64,000 bases of DNA, from positions 26,234,647-26,298,646 of the forward strand of contig NW_026943820.1 in the NCBI RefSeq assembly GCF_035594765.1, in the 5' to 3' direction. Made by a program: the position numbers and the translations under genes. The DNA comes from Anolis carolinensis. Its lineage: Eukaryota. Below, piece by piece: positions 53,911 through 64,000 of this stretch (position 1 is the first letter of the stretch; every line of letters starts with the position of its first letter). The notes beneath the pieces were generated by a model. It saw only the letters and a program-made list of their open reading frames with translations. It was not told the origin of the DNA and ran no database searches.

Positions 53911-55529
53911 TCCTTTTCAAATAAGGCTTGGAGAGTAGGTGACTCATTTGCAGAATTTTCTTGAGATGGAAAGACAAATGATAAGAGATCCATCCGCACG
54001 AGGCCTGAAGCTGGATTTGCAATTAAAGCAGCACAAATATAAAAATGTTGAGCACATTGCTCCCATCATTATAGAAAATCACACATATATGGAGTGACTA
54101 CTGTACATATGCACATATAAATCACTCAGGCCTCCCCAAAGTGGAACCTTCCAGGATGCCTTGAGGATAATAGGAACTGTAGTAATTCTGGAAGGCATCA
54201 AGTTGCCAAAGGCAGATGTTAAAAAATACAATTTCTTTTCCAATGAGATTTTTTCAGATCTTTTTCGTCTCTTGTGCAATATTCAAGGGCCTTCCCTCCC
54301 ACAAAGAGATTCCGGGCTCTGGCCCAAACATTGGAGGCTCCAGGATTTTGCTGGCTTTTGCAGAGCTGTTGGCAGGCGAAATCTCTCAATCATGGAAAAT
54401 GCGGGTTCCCATCCCAACACAGAGTTGAGCCAAGGCCCAAGCCTACAAAGCTAAACTGGGCCAGAATTTGCTGCCAGGGTTGTCATTACAGTATTCTTAC
54501 CCTCTTATATCGGTGTGATGAACCATGGGCCTTGTAGTCCTGCTCAGGACATTGTAATCCCTGATGAAGATGAAAACTTGGGTTTTTTACCTTCCCAGTC
54601 TGAACTGGATTCCTCTCAGCCAGATCCTTCCCAGGCAGATCTGGAAACCTTGCACCTGCAAGAAAGTTGTGCCCCAGAAGTATGTCAAACAACCCCAGAG
54701 CCTACTTCTCCCGTGTTCTTGCGCCGGGAGTTTTGTAAACAACAGAGAAGTTTGGATTCAGCTTCGCGCAGGAGTGCGAGGATAGCAGCTAAGAATGTTG
54801 CCAATTAACATTGGTTCTCGTGAGAATCTTTAAGGAGTTTAACATCTGGTCTCAGAGTTTAGCTTTCGTTTCTGATTCCCAGAGAACCGCTTTGGTGAGA
54901 AAGTTGGACTCTATATAGGTGTTTTGCCCGCGTAGCAACTTCGCGGAGTCAATTCGTCAGCCTACGGAGCGAGTTGTGTCTGGACAGCGCGCTCCGATTC
55001 AAGCCTCGCTTCAGCTCAAGCCTTGCCTTGCTATCCAGCCTTCGCCTTGCTTCCCAGCCTTTGTTTACCTACGGACTTTGCCTTGTTTCCCAGGACTAAT
55101 CCTTGCCTTGTTTCACGGATTTTACCAAGTTATTCCACGGACCTTGTTCTTGTTCTTAGTTACCTTGTTCCACGTTCAAGCCTTGTTTCAAGTATCAAGT
55201 TATTTCCTAGCCACGCTCAAGTTTTATGGACTAAGGACCTTGTCATCTCCCCTCACTTTGCTTGGCAAAGTGAGTGTTTCGGTTATTGGATTACAACTTT
55301 GGACCTTAATATTTCTTATTGGACATTGCTTTTTTGGACTAATTCTGACCTTTCCTGAAGGGTCTAATTCTGGACTATTTTCTATACTTGTTTTTATTAA
55401 CTTTATATATTCCTTCAATAAAGATATTAGTTAGATTCTGGCCTCTGTGTATGGTTATTGGTGCCTCTGCCGCCTGGGTCGTGACAGTTTGACTCCGCCA
55501 CCCATAAGCACCAACTAACCGAGGCCAGG

Positions 55530-56516
55530 ATGTCTACCGGAGCCGCGCCGGCTGGACAGCCGCTCAGCTACACCATCAGCAAGGACGAAGTGGACCGCAT
55601 CCGTGACAGACTCAACGCGCAGGATGGAGAAATAAAAGGGTTGAGGGAGCGCGGAGTTCGCCTCCCGGCCATGGCGTTGCCTACCAAGTTTTCTGGAGAA
55701 GCTGCTAAGGTTCATGTTTTCCGCCGCCAATGTCAAGCTTATCTAGAGGCCCGTGATGCCGAGTTTCCCCAAGAAGACATCAAGGTGGCGTGGGTCTACA
55801 GTCTTCTAGACGGACCAGCGGCTAGCTGGGCGACGGCCCTGTTTGATCAAGCCTCCCCCCACCTAAGTTCAGCACAACGCTTCTTGGATCACCTTAAGGA
55901 GACCTGGGGAATCGAGGACAATTTGGAGGCAGCCGGTCACAAACTCCGGCGCCTCCTTCAAGGAGACAGACCCATGTCTCAGTACATAGCCGAGTTCCGC
56001 GTGCTGGCCCACAACACCGGCTGGAACGATGTAGCCCTCAGAGGACAATTTCGGGAGGGTCTCAACATTGAAATGCTGGAAGAAATCTCCAAGGTGGATC
56101 CTCCCCAGACCCTCGAGGCACTCATTGATCAATGTTTACGGGCTGAAGTCATGATTGCCAACAGGAAACAATGGGTTCGAGGCCAGGGCGGTAGAGCCGG
56201 GGCAAAACCCCCCGCTCCCGCCAGTGTTCAGCCACGTCCGGTGTGGAGACCCCCGCCGCCAACCCCATACCCCAGAGGAGGCGAGGAGGTGCCGATGCAG
56301 TTGGGCAATGTGCGTCCCAGACTAGATGCCGCCGAGAAGGCCCGTCGTCAACGCTTGAACCTCTGCTGGTACTGCGGGAATGGGGGCCACTTCGCCAGAG
56401 AGTGCCCAGCCAAAGGGAAGCCTGCCGCCCGTCTTGCGGCGGCGTCCTCCACGGAGTCGAAGGCGTCTGAGCCGACTGGCACACAGCCGGCGGGGGAAGC
56501 CAACGACCGGGTGTAG
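55530..56516 (+). CDS. gag: Gag (retrotransposon capsid plus CCHC zinc knuckle)
   Basis: PTKFSG, QGDRPMSQYIAEF (MHR-like), EVPMQLG, CWYCGNGGHFARECP. Confidence 0.95.
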   Translation: MSTGAAPAGQPLSYTISKDEVDRIRDRLNAQDGEIKGLRERGVRLPAMALPTKFSGEAAKVHVFRRQCQAYLEARDAEFPQEDIKVAWVYSLLDGPAASWATALFDQASPHLSSAQRFLDHLKETWGIEDNLEAAGHKLRRLLQGDRPMSQYIAEFRVLAHNTGWNDVALRGQFREGLNIEMLEEISKVDPPQTLEALIDQCLRAEVMIANRKQWVRGQGGRAGAKPPAPASVQPRPVWRPPPPTPYPRGGEEVPMQLGNVRPRLDAAEKARRQRLNLCWYCGNGGHFARECPAKGKPAARLAAASSTESKASEPTGTQPAGEANDRV

Positions 56517-59500
56517 AGAGGCTCGCCAACCCGGTCAAAAAATCCATCCAAGAGCCGCCAACCGGGGTCCTGTTCCTTCTCGTGGTCACATTATGGTCAG
56601 CAAAAAGGGGACCCGTCATGATCCACGCCATGATAGACTCTGGAGCTACCAACAATTTCATCGATAGAGAGTATGCCGACTCTCTGGGATTACAATATCA
56701 TGATTTCAAGAATGCCCGTGTGGTGCAAGCCATAGACGGCCGTCCCCTCAAGACGGGCCCCGTAAGCCAGTGGTCGGAACCCACCAGGATGTGGATAAGG
56801 GAACATATGGAAGAGATTTCCTTCTTTGTTACCGAGGTTCCCCATTTCCCTGTGATTTTGGGAATTCCATGGCTGACACTCCACGACCCTAACATCTCCT
56901 GGTCCAACAGAGAACTGCAGTTTGCTTCACCGTACTGCCAAAACCATTGCCTCGTAGCCAAGGTATGCCATGCCACAGACTCCGAGCCCATCATCACCTT
57001 GCCAAAGAAGTACTCCGAGTATTGGGATGTATTCAATGAGAAAGAAGCCGAAAAATTACCCCCACATAGACCTTATGACTGTGCCATTGACTTGGTGGAG
57101 GGGGCCCCGATCCCGCGAGGGCATCTCTACTCCCTGACTGAACCAGAGCAAGAAGCTCTCAGGGAATTCTTAGAGACAAACCTTCGCAAGGGGTTCATCA
57201 GACCCTCTCAATCCCCAGCCGCCTCCCCAGTGATGTTTGTGAAGAAGAAGTCAGGGGAATTACGCTTGGTGGTGGACTACAGAGCATTGAACAATATCAC
57301 CAAGCGGAACAGCTATCCCCTGCCCTTAATCTCGGATCTACTGGACCGACTTCGAGGAGCCAAGGTCTACACCAAGCTGGATCTTCGGGGGGCTTATAAT
57401 CTAGTTCGCATCAGAGAAGGGGACGAGTGGAAGACCGCCTTCCAGACTAAATTCGGATTATTCGAGTCCCGAGTTATGAATTTCGGTTTATGCGGAGCTC
57501 CCGCAACGTTCCAGCATTTTGTCAACGATATTTTTCAGGACTATCTAGACAGATTCTTGATAATCTACCTGGACGATTTTTTGGTGTTTTCCAGATCACA
57601 ATCAGAACATGAGAACCACGTCAAAATGGTGTTGCAACGACTGCGGGATCATGGACTTTATGCCAAGCTAGAAAAATGCGCTTTTGATCTACAAGAGGTA
57701 GATTTCCTTGGCTACCGCATCTCGCCTCTAGGGCTTTCCATGGATCCAGCCAAAGTTTCAGCAGTATTGGAATGGCGGGCGCCAACTAACAAGAAAGAGG
57801 TGCAGCGTTTCTTGGGGTTCGCGAACTACTACCGCAAGTTCATTCCAGATTTTGCCCGCTGGTCCGACCCCATCACTAGCTGCATCCGTGGAAAGCAGCC
57901 TTTCCGCTGGACTGATCAAGCAGAGAAAGGGTTCCAGCAACTGAAGAAACTATTCACCTCCCAGCCAATTCTACAGCACCCAAATCCTGGAACCCCTTTT
58001 GTGGTGCAAGCGGACGCCTCTGATGTGGCAATTGGGGCTGTACTCTTACAACCGGTGGGAGATCACCTCCACCCCTGTGCCTTTTATTCTCGTCAACTAA
58101 CCACACCAGAGAGGAATTACACCATTTGGGAAAAAGAACTACTGGCCATAAAGGCAGCCTTTGAAACTTGGAGACATTGGCTAGAAGGGGCCAAATTCCC
58201 CATTGAAGTCCACACTGATCATCGTAATCTAGAACATCTAAGAACTGCCCGCAAACTAAATCAGAGGCAGCAACGTTGGGCTTTATTCTTTGAACGTTTC
58301 AACTTCCAGATCCATTATGTGACCCCAGCTCAAACCAAGCAAGCAGACGCCCTGTCACGTAAACCGGAATACGCTGCAGGACGCAAGGAGACCTTTGAAT
58401 CCCAACTGCTACAACCTGAGAACTTTGCCACGCTCACAGTGGGGAACACCAAATCCAGTCCCATTGGTTCAACTTCCCCTACTCCAGGACCCATCTGTGC
58501 TCAAGAAATCAGGGCTAGTCAGCAAGCAGATGCCTGGGCGCAGGACCAACTTCGCCAAGGTCTGCATTTTCCCTTTTCGCTTAAAGATGGGCTGCTCTGC
58601 TATAGAAATCATGTTTATATCCCACCCGGACCGGGCAGGGAAAAAGCGCTTCGTCTGTGTCATGACTGCAAACCAGCAGGACACTTCGGACTATTTAAAA
58701 CCATGCATTTGATCCTAAGAGATTTTTGGTGGCCCAAGATCCGCAAGGATGTGGAAAAATATGTCAACACCTGCCCAGTATGCCAGCGCTCCAAGATACG
58801 AAGGGAGAAGTCCTCAGGGCTTTTGCACCCCCTTCCTACCCCATCTCGCCCATGGGAAATAATTTCCGCGGATTTCATCACTGACCTACCACCTTCCTGT
58901 GGATTCACCACGATCTTAGTGGTGGTGGACCTATTCACCAAGTTAGCCCATTTCATTCCCTGCGAAGGCCTCCCCACGGCCAAAGAAACTGCGGATCTAT
59001 TTCTTCAGCATGTTTTCAGACTACATGGATTGCCCAAGAGTTTAGTCACAGACCGTGGATCTCAATTCACCTCTCGTTTTTGGAAGGCACTACAAAAACT
59101 ACTGGGCATAGACTCTCGCTTATCTTCAGCTCATCATCCCCAAACAGATGGGCAAACGGAGCGCACCAATGCCACTTTGGAGCAGTATCTTCGCTGTTAT
59201 GTAAACTACCAACAGGACAATTGGGCTTCTCTGTTACCACTGTCTGAGTTTGCCTACAATAATGGAGTTCAAGCTTCTACAAAAGAAACGCCGTTCTTTG
59301 CAAACTACGGTTTCCATCCACGTTTCTTTCCCCCTGTCATTGAAACTTCAGAAGTTCCCGCAGCAGAGGATTGGCTGCAGGAACTCGCAGCGGTGCAACA
59401 ACTTTTGCTCCAGCAACTGGACCAAGCCAAGGAGGACTATAAACGCCACGCTGACAAACACCGCCAGCCGGGCCCCGAAATCAAGGTAGGAGATCGGGTT

Positions 59501-60256
59501 TTTCTGTCCACTCGCTTTCTGCCCTCCCACCGCCCATGCCGGAAGTTAGATGCCCGCTTCATTGGCCCCTATCCAGTGGTGGCGCAATTAAACCCCGTGA
59601 CTTTCAAACTCCAACTTCCGCGTTCAATGCGCATTCACCCAGTGTTTCACCGTTCCCTGCTCCTTCCGGCGGATGGTGTGCGTCCTGATACAGACCAACC
59701 AGCCCCCCCTCCTGTTTTGATGAATGGGGAGGAGGAGTTCGAGGTTGAGGACATTTTGGATTCTCGCTTTCATCGCCGCCGCCTACAATATCTCATTGAC
59801 TGGGTGGGTTTTGGGCCTGAGGAACGCTCTTGGGAAGACGCCTCCACAGTCCATGCTCCTGATCTAACCCGTCGCTTCCATCTGACCTATCCCACCAAAC
59901 CGCGACCTCGCGCTTCGGGGAGAGGACCCCAGTTTGGGAGGGGCCCTGAGGAGGGGGATAGTGTGATGAACCATGGGCCTTGTAGTCCTGCTCAGGACAT
60001 TGTAATCCCTGATGAAGATGAAAACTTGGGTTTTTTACCTTCCCAGTCTGAACTGGATTCCTCTCAGCCAGATCCTTCCCAGGCAGATCTGGAAACCTTG
60101 CACCTGCAAGAAAGTTGTGCCCCAGAAGTATGTCAAACAACCCCAGAGCCTACTTCTCCCGTGTTCTTGCGCCGGGAGTTTTGTAAACAACAGAGAAGTT
60201 TGGATTCAGCTTCGCGCAGGAGTGCGAGGATAGCAGCTAAGAATGTTGCCAATTAA
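56492..60256 (+). CDS. pol: Pol (PR-RT-RNaseH-IN-chromodomain), in the -1 frame relative to gag, extending into the 3' LTR
   Basis: DSGA, YLDD, DASD, HHCC/DDE, GPY and chromodomain FEVEDILDSR..YLIDWVGFGPEERSWE. The frame is open from 56471; start set at the putative slip site. Confidence 0.95.
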   Translation, partial: GGSQRPGVERLANPVKKSIQEPPTGVLFLLVVTLWSAKRGPVMIHAMIDSGATNNFIDREYADSLGLQYHDFKNARVVQAIDGRPLKTGPVSQWSEPTRMWIREHMEEISFFVTEVPHFPVILGIPWLTLHDPNISWSNRELQFASPYCQNHCLVAKVCHATDSEPIITLPKKYSEYWDVFNEKEAEKLPPHRPYDCAIDLVEGAPIPRGHLYSLTEPEQEALREFLETNLRKGFIRPSQSPAASPVMFVKKKSGELRLVVDYRALNNITKRNSYPLPLISDLLDRLRGAKVYTKLDLRGAYNLVRIREGDEWKTAFQTKFGLFESRVMNFGLCGAPATFQHFVNDIFQDYLDRFLIIYLDDFLVFSRSQSEHENHVKMVLQRLRDHGLYAKLEKCAFDLQEVDFLGYRISPLGLSMDPAKVSAVLEWRAPTNKKEVQRFLGFANYYRKFIPDFARWSDPITSCIRGKQPFRWTDQAEKGFQQLKKLFTSQPILQHPNPGTPFVVQADASDVAIGAVLLQPVGDHLHPCAFYSRQLTTPERNYTIWEKELLAIKAAFETWRHWLEGAKFPIEVHTDHRNLEHLRTARKLNQRQQRWALFFERFNFQIHYVTPAQTKQADALSRKPEYAAGRKETFESQLLQPENFATLTVGNTKSSPIGSTSPTPGPICAQEIRASQQADAWAQDQLRQGLHFPFSLKDGLLCYRNHVYIPPGPGREKALRLCHDCKPAGHFGLFKTMHLILRDFWWPKIRKDVEKYVNTCPVCQRSKIRREKSSGLLHPLPTPSRPWEIISADFITDLPPSCGFTTILVVVDLFTKLAHFIPCEGLPTAKETADLFLQHVFRLHGLPKSLVTDRGSQFTSRFWKALQKLLGIDSRLSSAHHPQTDGQTERTNATLEQYLRCYVNYQQDNWASLLPLSEFAYNNGVQASTKETPFFANYGFHPRFFPPVIETSEVPAAEDWLQELAAVQQLLLQQLDQAKEDYKRHADKHRQPGPEIKVGDRVFLSTRFLPSHRPCRKLDARFIGPYPVVAQLNPVTFKLQLPRSMRIHPVFHRSLLLPADGVRPDTDQPAPPPVLMNGEEEFEVEDILDSRFHRRRLQYLIDWVGFGPEERSWEDASTVHAPDLTRRFHLTYPTKPRPRASGRGPQFGRGPEEGDSVMNHGPCSPAQDIVIPDEDENLGFLPSQSELDSSQPDPSQADLETLHLQESCAPEVCQTTPEPTSPVFLRREFCKQQRSLDSASRRSARIAAKNVAN

Positions 60257-61892
60257 CATTGGTTCTCGTGAGAATCTTTAAGGAGTTTAACATCTGGTCT
60301 CAGAGTTTAGCTTTCGTTTCTGATTCCCAGAGAACCGCTTTGGTGAGAAAGTTGGACTCTATATAGGTGTTTTGCCCGCGTAGCAACTTCGCGGAGTCAA
60401 TTCGTCAGCCTACGGAGCGAGTTGTGTCTGGACAGCGCGCTCCGATTCAAGCCTCGCTTCAGCTCAAGCCTTGCCTTGCTATCCAGCCTTCGCCTTGCTT
60501 CCCAGCCTTTGTTTACCTACGGACTTTGCCTTGTTTCCCAGGACTAATCCTTGCCTTGTTTCACGGATTTTACCAAGTTATTCCACGGACCTTGTTCTTG
60601 TTCTTAGTTACCTTGTTCCACGTTCAAGCCTTGTTTCAAGTATCAAGTTATTTCCTAGCCACGCTCAAGTTTTATGGACTAAGGACCTTGTCATCTCCCC
60701 TCACTTTGCTTGGCAAAGTGAGTGTTTCGGTTATTGGATTACAACTTTGGACCTTAATATTTCTTATTGGACATTGCTTTTTTGGACTAATTCTGACCTT
60801 TCCTGAAGGGTCTAATTCTGGACTATTTTCTATACTTGTTTTTATTAACTTTATATATTCCTTCAATAAAGATATTAGTTAGATTCTGGCCTCTGTGTAT
60901 GGTTATTGGTGCCTCTGCCGCCTGGGTCGTGACAATCGGAAAGAAAACCAAATCCGCCCAGAACAAAAGCAGCGCTTAATCGGAGACTCTCCGTCATATT
61001 CAGAGCTCAAGATATAAGAGTTATGTGCAGCTGACTAAGATCTGGGAAGGCAAAAATGGCTCTGGGTCCATTCCAGTCCGGTTTCAGGCTCGGCCATGGA
61101 ATGGAGAGAGCTTTGGTCACTTTGGAAGATGATCTACAGCGAGAACTCGACATAGAGTGTATCCCTGTTCGTTCTCTTGGACCTCTCAGCGACCTTCGAT
61201 ACCATCCATGGTATCTTTAATGAAGTACGAATTTTTAGTTTACAGATGTTATGTTTAATTGTGTGTTTGTGTTTTAAAAAGGGTAAGTATTACAGTTATT
61301 GCATCTCAGCACTCAGGCTGGTTGCCATGGAGAAGTAGGCAGAGACAATTGCCGTTTAGTTGAAGAAGTGCAGAGTTTAAAAAAGAGAGTCAGTCTGTGC
61401 TCTGATGAGGCACAGGGAAGATTGATCCTAGGTTGATGGGATCAAGAAGACTCAATTGTTCATTTTGAGTCGGTTTAAAATAAGTTTGGTGACTTATTTA
61501 ATGTAGTCTGTGTCCTGGTAAGGCACAGAGAATCTGTGATCGTATATCACAGGGGTGACTGCGGTTTAAAAGTAGTAGAGAAAGAAGTTTTAACTACTTT
61601 AAGTAAAAGAAGTGACACTTTAGAGAGTTTGACTCATCTCATTCTAGTATTGTAACTGTTAATAAAAATACCTCTAAGTGAGAAACAACATTGTAACCAC
61701 TACGCTCTGTGCCTGAATACTCTTGTTATTGTTCTTTCAACATCTAAGCCTCTGTCGCATGTATTATAAACCAAGTTACGCTACCATCTAAAGCGAATAA
61801 GAAAAAGAAAGGAAAAAAAAGTAAAAGGTCTCCTCCCTGAGTCTTTGGTGGTTGCATTTTTACAAATTGGTGGCAGTTGTTATTAGCTCTTC

Positions 61893-62153: not shown

Positions 62154-62935
62154 ACAGTAGAGTCTCATTTATCCAACATAAATGGGCCGGCAGAACGTTG
62201 GATAAGTGAATATGTTGGATAATAAGGAGGGATTAAGGAAACGCCTATTAAACATCAAATTAGGTTATGATTTTACAAATTAAGCACCAAAACATCATGT
62301 TATACAACAAATTTGACAGAAAAAGTAGCTCAATACGCAGTAATGCTATGTAGTAATTACAGTAGAGTCTCACTTATCCAATGTAAACGGGCCGGCAGAA
62401 TGTTGGATAAGCAAATATGTTGGATAATAAGGAGAGATTAAGGAAAAGCCTATTAAACATCAAATTAGGTTATGATTTTACAAATTAAGCACCAAAACAT
62501 TATGTTATACAACAAATTTGACATAAAAAGTAGTTCAATACACAGTAATGCTATGTAGTAATTACTGTATTTACGAATTTAGCACCAAAATATCACGATG
62601 TATTGAAAACATTGACTACAAAAATGCGTTGGATAATCCAGAATGTTGGATAAGCGAGTGTTGGATAAATGAGACTCTACTGTACTATATTTACGAATTT
62701 AGCACCAAAATATCATGATGTATTGAAAACATTGACTACAAAAATGCATTGGATAATTCAGAACATTGAATAAGTGAGACTCTACTGTATTTTTATATTA
62801 TTATTATGCCCCGATTTACTGCAAGTGATGGAATAAACTGCTCTGACCTCTCTCTTCTTTATTTGCAGATGGAAAAGGCCAGCAGACCATTCTCCTAATA
62901 CTACAACGAACGTCTCTTGGAAATTTGTGAAGACA

Positions 62936-64000
62936 ATGAGAGTTCAACTGAAGGGTGATGCCATCTGTACACTCTTCTTGGTGGTAGCGCTCTTCACCAT
63001 CCTCTATTCCCAGCTGGGCCACACTTCCCTTCGAGAAGAACCAGTGAAGGTCCAGAGGAGGCCTTCACCAGCAACAGGCAGGGCTTTCCATGCCCTCCAA
63101 AGAAAGCTGGATGCCAGGCCTACAGCATCAGGGCCCGGAATTATTTCTGCCATGAAGGAGCTCAAGGTGGCCAGTGAAAGCCACGTGGGCACCAGTCCTC
63201 CACCCTCAACACCTTCCGCCTTTGATTTCAGGCAGTACCTTCGGGACAAGGACAACAGGAAGTTTGATATTCTCATTAACCAACCAAAGAAGTGCAAAAG
63301 GAACCCAGGCGGCCCTTTCTTGCTCATTGCTGTCAAATCCCTGGTTGAGGACTTTGACCGCCGGGAGATTGTCCGGAAAACCTGGGGAAGGGAAGGGTTG
63401 GTGAACGGAGCCCAGGTCCAAAGGGTTTTCCTCCTGGCCGTCCCAAAGAATAAGACAACTTTGCCGACCTGGGAGATTCTCGTTCAACAGGAGAGCCAGA
63501 TGTATCGGGACATCCTCTTGTGGGACTTCCTCGATACCTTCTTCAACTTGACTCTGAAAGAGATCCATTTCCTCAACTGGGCTGACGAGTTTTGTTCCAA
63601 CACCAAGTTCATCTTCAAGGGCGATGCCGACGTCTTTGTCAATGTGGAGAACATTGTTCACTTCCTCGAGAGCCGTGATCCCAACGAGGACCTCTTCGTC
63701 GGAGATATCATCTACAACGCACAACCGATCCGAAAGCACAAGAGCAAATACTACATCCCAGAGACAATGTACGGGTTGGGTATGTATCCGGTCTACGCTG
63801 GAGGCGGAGGGTTCTTGCTCTCCAGCAGTACCATGAGGAAACTCTCCCAGGCCTGCAACCAGGTGGAACTCTTCCCCATTGACGACGTCTTCTTAGGCAT
63901 GTGCCTGCAAAGAATCAACCTGAAGCCTGTCATGCATGAAGGGTTCAAGACCTTTGGGATTACCAAGCCCTCCGCAGCCCCTAACCTACAGACTTTCGAT
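62936..64000 (+). CDS. B3GNT9: Beta-1,3-N-acetylglucosaminyltransferase 9 (GT31), truncated by window end
   Basis: MRVQLKGDAICTLFLVVALFTILY (signal anchor), then FDFRQYL, LLIAVKS, RKTWG, DTFFNLTLK, KGDADVFVN, YAGGGG, PIDDVFLGMC; acceptor at 62868; synteny with TRADD. Confidence 0.92.
   Translation, partial: MRVQLKGDAICTLFLVVALFTILYSQLGHTSLREEPVKVQRRPSPATGRAFHALQRKLDARPTASGPGIISAMKELKVASESHVGTSPPPSTPSAFDFRQYLRDKDNRKFDILINQPKKCKRNPGGPFLLIAVKSLVEDFDRREIVRKTWGREGLVNGAQVQRVFLLAVPKNKTTLPTWEILVQQESQMYRDILLWDFLDTFFNLTLKEIHFLNWADEFCSNTKFIFKGDADVFVNVENIVHFLESRDPNEDLFVGDIIYNAQPIRKHKSKYYIPETMYGLGMYPVYAGGGGFLLSSSTMRKLSQACNQVELFPIDDVFLGMCLQRINLKPVMHEGFKTFGITKPSAAPNLQTFD

Follow-up and report, generated by a model that had tools for sequence, protein, structure and literature searches.

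A conserved HMGN-like motif in the LTR-encoded Pol tail of an Anolis Gypsy chromovirus: a predicted nucleosome anchor on the integrase

The Pol protein of an intact Gypsy chromovirus in Anolis carolinensis ends inside its own 3' LTR, and the tail read from U3 carries the HMGN-like motif RRSARIAAK, which is under strong protein-level purifying selection across subfamilies. In this study, we analyzed the element in a 64,000-nucleotide stretch of genomic DNA (the window), together with its copies in the genome and its relatives in other vertebrates. We propose, with a probability of about 0.6, that the selected motif, placed behind an acidic spacer, binds the acidic patch of H2A-H2B in the manner of an HMGN arginine anchor and that, together with the chromodomain, it forms a bivalent tether. 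This reading is drawn from comparison of sequences.

The element and its U3-encoded tail

The element occupies 54514-60934 on the forward strand, where all its parts lie. The 5' LTR (54514..55486) and the 3' LTR (59962..60934) are identical, 973 bp each and bounded by TG...CA, and a target site duplication (TSD), ATCGG, flanks the element at 54509-54513 and 60935-60939. The primer-binding site (PBS, 55487..55498) is followed by gag (55530..56516), in which Pfam found a Ty3 capsid and a CCHC knuckle, and by a pol frame of 1261 codons (56471..60256). The two genes overlap, with pol in the -1 frame relative to gag, and no canonical slippery heptamer was evident on inspection by eye at 56490-56520. 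The Pfam order in Pol was protease, RT, RNase H, integrase, SH3 and Chromo, all ahead of the tail. With its TG...CA LTRs, TSD, polypurine tract (PPT, 59948..59961), PR-RT-RH-IN order and C-terminal chromodomain, and without env, the element is a Ty3/Gypsy chromovirus. The chromodomain (59738..59881) has three cage aromatics at the expected spacing, F at 59738, W at 59801 and F at 59810, picked by eye without alignment to HP1, which places it in group I (classical) as defined in the accessible part of PMC3350952. In the same part of that source, binding of H3K9me2/3 by group I chromodomains was demonstrated for MAGGY only. A coding exon of the Galactosyl_T family (beta-1,3-glycosyltransferase; 62870-64000) lies on the same strand about 2 kb downstream of the element.

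The initial annotation had claimed that Pol runs through the PPT into U3, and the frame 56471-60256 was indeed open. The PPT is read in frame as EEGDS, the 3' LTR begins within Pol codon 1164 (59962), and 97 codons follow before the stop at 60254-60256. The C-terminus of Pol is ...SASRRSARIAAKNVAN, and its U3-read part terminates in RRSARIAAKNVAN. This tail (59962..60256) contains 15 D/E and 8 K/R, with a net charge of -13 over the first 65 residues and +6 over the last 32, so that an acidic spacer, predicted to be disordered, is followed by a basic end. The motif RRSARIAAK (60215..60241) has the RRSxR core of HMGN, with R1, R2, R5 and Ser as invariant positions. An acidic block, DEDENLGF (60011..60034), is kept in all subfamilies as D-E-[DE]-E-N-[LM]-G-F. 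The TND-interacting motif (TIM) is defined, in the available text of PMC9987994, as a helix, an acidic linker of 8-16 residues and FxGF. DEDENLGF resembles FxGF, but N stands in place of the first Phe and an upstream helix is absent, so the block does not class as a TIM.

Pfam searches of the tail returned no family and no HMGN (HMG14/17) domain at E up to 1, and a PDB search with the last 40 residues gave 0 matches at E up to 10. A protein atlas search for the tail yielded only plant clusters, under 0.9, and no lead. In a structure model, the chromodomain had a pLDDT of ~90 and the spacer, modeled as disordered, one below 50. A low-confidence terminal helix was placed at residues 145-172 (pLDDT ~53), including the motif and the preceding 14 codons.

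A 10-nt complement of the PBS lies at LTR +430 (54943-54952), 31 bases after the TATA, and in 3 of 10 loci, all of family B, the PBS and the LTR word had changed together in a compensatory manner. Self-priming, for which Tf1 is a precedent, fits both observations, and the element is predicted to self-prime with its transcript start at LTR +430. The mechanism is named in the accessible part of PMC2864245. In the 3' LTR, the TATA lies at 60360, the predicted start of R at 60391 and AATAAA at 60865. The U3 ORF had initially been annotated as upstream of the LTR TSS, in agreement with the predicted start, which lies downstream of the U3 frame; expression of the tail would thus depend on the 3' end of full-length RNA alone. 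Contigs of four presumed-RNA runs contained no joints, and such contigs are uninformative on the start or level of transcription. The U3 frame closes two Anolis gene models in UniRef, P0127 and P0128 (an ATP13A5-like ATPase and an RT protein); for the ATPase, the tail is missing from the NCBI models P0199 and P0200. These ends are either an annotation artefact or exonisation.

Copies, subfamilies and selection on the U3 frame

The pattern of PPT plus LTR start had 5,457 matches in the genome against 526 for the reversed control, giving ~5,000 related PPT/LTR junctions. A DNA search with the element's own U3 returned sequences identical to the window copy in 40/40 of the best of 1,110 candidates, and so did a protein search with its own C-terminus in 150/150 scored matches. 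Copies were sampled by fetching the first 60 of 100 listed PPT/LTR junctions, and 56 of the 60 were lineage members. The motif was in the U3 frame in 54/56 and frameshifted in 2/56. A chromodomain lay upstream in 53 of the 56, and 51/53 read from it to the motif. The U3 frame was 96, 91 or 84 residues long depending on the subfamily, and 86 or 83 in family B, with an in-frame ATG at LTR +5 in every subfamily. One locus (L103) is a chimeric LTR whose start is of family B and whose U3 is of A type, with the frame preserved through the motif.

A solo LTR of the sister subfamily B lies in the window at 18206..19122 on the forward strand (TSD GGCAT), inside a dispersed short repeat (family D4, 18070-19200). 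As had been claimed, it holds an ATG-led open frame (18210-18470, 86 codons) with HGPCSP, DEDENMGF and, at 18429-18455, RRSLRIAAR. It was 97-99% identical to the 39 other best matches of its own family. We located 28 of 30 subfamily B loci; all 28 were open, 25/28 read RRSLRI, and private motif changes occurred in 3/28 of these solo-type LTRs. A B-specific junction pattern had 144 genome matches (control, 0), and among 15 such loci, the frame ran from chromodomain to motif in 7, the motif stayed in the U3 frame in 10, and 5 were broken. Full-length subfamily B members have the same Pol-U3 fusion. These results identify the solo LTR as a recent sister-subfamily copy rather than an independently constrained relic, so the shared frame reflects selection on replicating subfamilies. 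The protein-level constraint read from this pair in the initial annotation thus stands for the U3 frame and its motif, from dN/dS and indels, but not for the solo LTR.

We then compared dN/dS along the U3 ORF across copies, as had been suggested. Of 75 loci, 57 had an in-frame chromodomain and motif (18 dropped), and 51 unique copies were left after removal of one chimera and deduplication; the open-frame filter favors open frames and does not favor synonymous change. Values were computed with a codon model, raw and with singleton codons masked. For the motif, dN/dS was 0.062 raw and 0.028 masked (p 3e-19 and 2e-22 against 1, values that are generous because the null model used a fixed kappa and block limits were set after viewing the alignment). 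The chromodomain gave 0.145 and 0.098, the linker 0.73 and 0.63, the U3 start 0.40 and 0.42, the spacer 0.65 and 0.66, the 14 pre-motif codons 0.27 and 0.20, and the whole U3 frame 0.33 and 0.28; the acidic-GF block gave 0.107 raw. At such values for the motif, its conservation is not due to chance.

The same was seen in a set without the open-frame filter, in which 97 of 99 LTR copies were scorable: R1 was kept in 94, R2 in 96, R5 in 95, and S3, I6 and A8 in all 97. Each kept residue was encoded by two to five codons (R2 by AGR and CGR, R5 by five codons); synonymous changes saturate the motif, with arginines switching between AGR and CGN. Position 4 varied (A/L/T). Lys stood at an Arg position only once, even though AGA and AGG, from which a single transition gives Lys, are the predominant codons of R2 and R5. 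Length variants common to at least two copies were multiples of three in 3/3 cases inside the frame versus 7/27 in the non-coding LTR, with two rows discarded and the TATA-to-mid-R stretch outside the count. All three out-of-frame length variants within the U3 frame were singletons. The +2 frame of U3 contained 6-10 stops in 9/9 exemplars.

The candidate anchor and its alternatives

The initial annotation had matched the motif to the HMGN core. RRSAR of HMGN2 and RRSSR of Dsup are resolved acidic-patch anchors, and in the HMGN2 structure R2 and R5 are the anchoring residues (PMC12487698, accessible part), which confirms the match at RRSAR. Phosphorylation of the serine was modeled to block HMGN2 binding (same part of PMC12487698). 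According to the available text of PMC13347269, RRSARIAT of yeast Dot5 binds nucleosomes and needs R6, R7 or R10, and acidic-patch mutants abolish binding; 7/8 of its residues are identical to the motif of the element. The positions invariant in the element are those singled out in these parts of PMC12487698 and PMC13347269, and position 4, variable here, also differs between HMGN (A) and Dsup (S).

On the proposed mechanism, full-length RNA, through its 3' end, would be the sole template for translating the tail, which would stay on the integrase. A flexible spacer of ~95 residues would let the arginine anchor hold any nucleosome, while methylated H3K9 would be favored through the chromodomain. 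Jointly, anchor and chromodomain may tether the integration complex to chromatin, like foamy virus Gag and MLV p12, with the serine of the motif as a predicted phospho-switch, as in HMGN. Modeling of the last 36 residues in complex with Anolis H2A-H2B, run with neither alignment nor control complexes, gave uninformative scores of 0.02 and 0.03 (mark, 0.34). AlphaFold 3 also fails on the HMGN2-nucleosome complex (PMC12487698, accessible part).

We next considered relatives outside this element. The closest protein matches were Gypsy Pol proteins of Anolis, Podarcis, frog and fish. RRSxR[ILVM] followed the chromodomain in 6 of 181 chromodomain-bearing proteins, namely four of Anolis, one of Podarcis and one of frog, the last a gene model of uncertain frame; it was found in 0/104 of a further set of chromodomain-bearing representatives. 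RRSAR[IL] occurred at a frequency of 5e-5 in shuffled sequences. In the Podarcis cluster, the full tail was present in 5/15 members (P0004, P0191, P0196, P0197, P0198), all ending PRRSARLKA, with a spacer that is unalignable with that of Anolis and with different residues upstream of the motif. Proteins of Rhineura (P0222), Vipera (P0229) and Crotalus (P0257), and P0025, have a PPT-like GDSV, an acidic spacer and a basic end, and lack RRSxR[ILVM]. These four form one squamate clade (92/91) with the Anolis and Podarcis elements, in which Anolis and Podarcis are not sisters and the inner order is not settled; the motif is thus either ancestral and then degenerated, or convergent. Judged from these proteins, several of them single gene models and possibly decayed copies, the exact motif does not extend to the whole clade. 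What every squamate relative examined has retained, with no fixed sequence, is a block of net +5 to +7 close to the end of the tail. In 64/181 proteins, the chromodomain was followed directly by an RGRP-type block in place of the motif. Pol of fish chromoviruses (P0010, P0021, P0038 and others) has tails of 44-47 residues with an RGRP block, which we take to be AT-hook-like, and a conserved SPEY/F end. The end of the fish tail appears to lie in the LTR, the LTR boundaries outside Anolis being read from protein sequence only.

Several observations count against the anchor. The tails of Rhineura, Vipera, Crotalus and P0025 are acidic and then basic with no exact motif, none of the 104 further representatives has it, Anolis and Podarcis are not sisters in the tree, and an active Gypsy family of the same genome ends right after SH3. 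The 14 pre-motif codons are also constrained and were modeled with the motif as one low-confidence helix. The functional unit may therefore be a longer basic helix than the motif alone. One alternative, which we consider unlikely, is that the basic end serves the integrase as a nuclear or nucleolar localization signal and the HMGN match is incidental. C-terminal basic NLSs do occur in retrotransposon integrases (Ty1), and the charged block common to the squamate relatives would suit such a signal. However, an NLS should tolerate Lys, which was seen in 1/97 copies though the R2 and R5 codons are one transition away, and it does not account for the invariance of S3 and I6.

It is also improbable, in our estimate, that the last 30 residues are a basic helix binding DNA or RNA, either target DNA or the element's own RNA, of which the motif is merely the conserved end. 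The constraint upstream of the motif, the modeled helix and the Arg-rich blocks of similar charge in snake and amphisbaenian tails are what such a helix would predict. Yet the model is of low confidence, and the invariant pattern is exactly R-R-S-x-R-hydrophobic and recurs in Podarcis despite differing upstream residues.

We give little credence to a tail that acts apart from the integrase, as a cleaved peptide or as a product of the U3 ATG under host promoters, and alters host chromatin like HMGN. The ATG at LTR +5 in every subfamily and the ends of P0127 and P0128 would favor it. That ATG is part of the terminal TGTGATG, however, and may be fixed for DNA reasons; U3 lies upstream of the predicted transcript start, the NCBI ATPase models lack the tail, and solo-type LTRs carry private motif changes. 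Finally, although U3 contains promoter elements and the LTR start must stay conserved for integration, conservation at the DNA level (an enhancer or factor-binding site, with the open frame as a by-product) is very improbable and largely refuted by the codon dN/dS, the synonymous saturation with AGR-CGR switches, the in-frame shared indels and the stops in the +2 frame.

Other Gypsy families and known systems

A second Gypsy family in the genome, family C (L148, L226-L254; e.g., G000:C1:1921562-1924576), has ~45% Pol identity and no chromodomain. Its junction pattern had 1,929 matches versus 498 for the control. Of 30 loci fetched, 20 belonged to the family, and in each of them the frame continued from SH3 across the PPT into U3. 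The tail, of 137-142 residues, has LRD[IL]F, an acidic linker and FEGF in 19/20, counting one LRDIS copy; an in-frame deletion removed this helix-acidic-FEGF block in 1/20, and the dN/dS of the block was 0.066 (17 unique copies). LRD[IL]F, an 8-residue linker and FEGF follow the TIM as a sequence pattern only, with the helix judged by eye. FxGF of the TIM is essential for binding LEDGF/HRP2 (PMC9987994, available text). Three family C junctions stand in tandem, ~5.2 kb apart (L245-L247).

A third abundant Gypsy family (L166-L195), with a single frame of ~1,596 codons and neither chromodomain nor tail, stops right after SH3 in 29/30 loci. Since this family is active in the same genome, retrotransposition in this host can proceed without such a tail. 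LEDGF/HRP2 is the tether used by lentiviruses. We tentatively suggest, as a possibility we hold to be less than even, that the squamate Gypsy U3 is a swappable cassette of host-mimicking chromatin motifs on the integrase, with an HMGN-type anchor plus chromodomain here and a TIM mimic recruiting LEDGF/HRP2 in family C. If so, this genome would house two active families directed to opposite kinds of chromatin, and integration-site choice could be studied as a natural experiment.

To our knowledge, chromatin choice by vertebrate LTR retrotransposons has seldom been put to the test. The predicted anchor is nine residues long, is backed by selection and lends itself to assays with peptides and nucleosomes, and thousands of young insertions in one genome open the targeting prediction to mapping alone. 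The selection observed here also means that an LTR U3 can double as coding sequence, which matters where LTRs are read as purely regulatory. In Tal1, an R/K change in the integrase C-terminus redirects integration; no link from it to RRSARIAAK could be drawn.

The element has the same gag-pol and group I chromodomain as the vertebrate V-clade (Amn/Sushi-like) chromoviruses, which include Amn-ichi of Anolis carolinensis (PMC2774666, accessible part). It differs from their fish relatives, whose short tails carry the RGRP block and SPEY/F end, in its acidic spacer and RRSAR. Coding into the 3' LTR is not unique to it, being apparently present in those fish relatives and also known from plant centromeric retrotransposons of CRM group A, whose integrase coding ends inside the 3' LTR (PMC3059260, accessible part); the available text of PMC3601003 contains nothing on coding within LTRs. 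The CR motif of CRM replaces the chromodomain and has no known partner, whereas in the element the chromodomain is intact, and the motif comes in addition to it and matches a nucleosome anchor of defined structure. HMGN (RRSARLSA), Dsup (RRSSRLTS) and Dot5 (RRSARIAT) have the core R-R-S-x-R-[LI] in common with the element, but only this short motif, which here sits at the C-terminus of a Pol polyprotein.

Arginine anchors tether viral genomes or pre-integration complexes to nucleosomes in foamy virus Gag (CBS), MLV p12, KSHV LANA and CMV IE1, and loss of the foamy anchor redistributes integration sites (PMC9040877, accessible part). The word "retrotransposon" occurs 0 times in that part of the review, and no retrotransposon integrase with an acidic-patch motif was found in the literature searched, most subscription papers lying outside it. 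Those viral tethers are on Gag products or DNA-virus proteins, whereas the predicted anchor of the element is on the integrase; if it is real, acidic-patch tethering would extend from retroviral Gag products to a retrotransposon integrase. LTR-coded integrase ends and acidic-patch tethers are thus already known, and what appears new is an LTR-encoded HMGN-type motif on a chromodomain integrase, with its nucleosome binding predicted.
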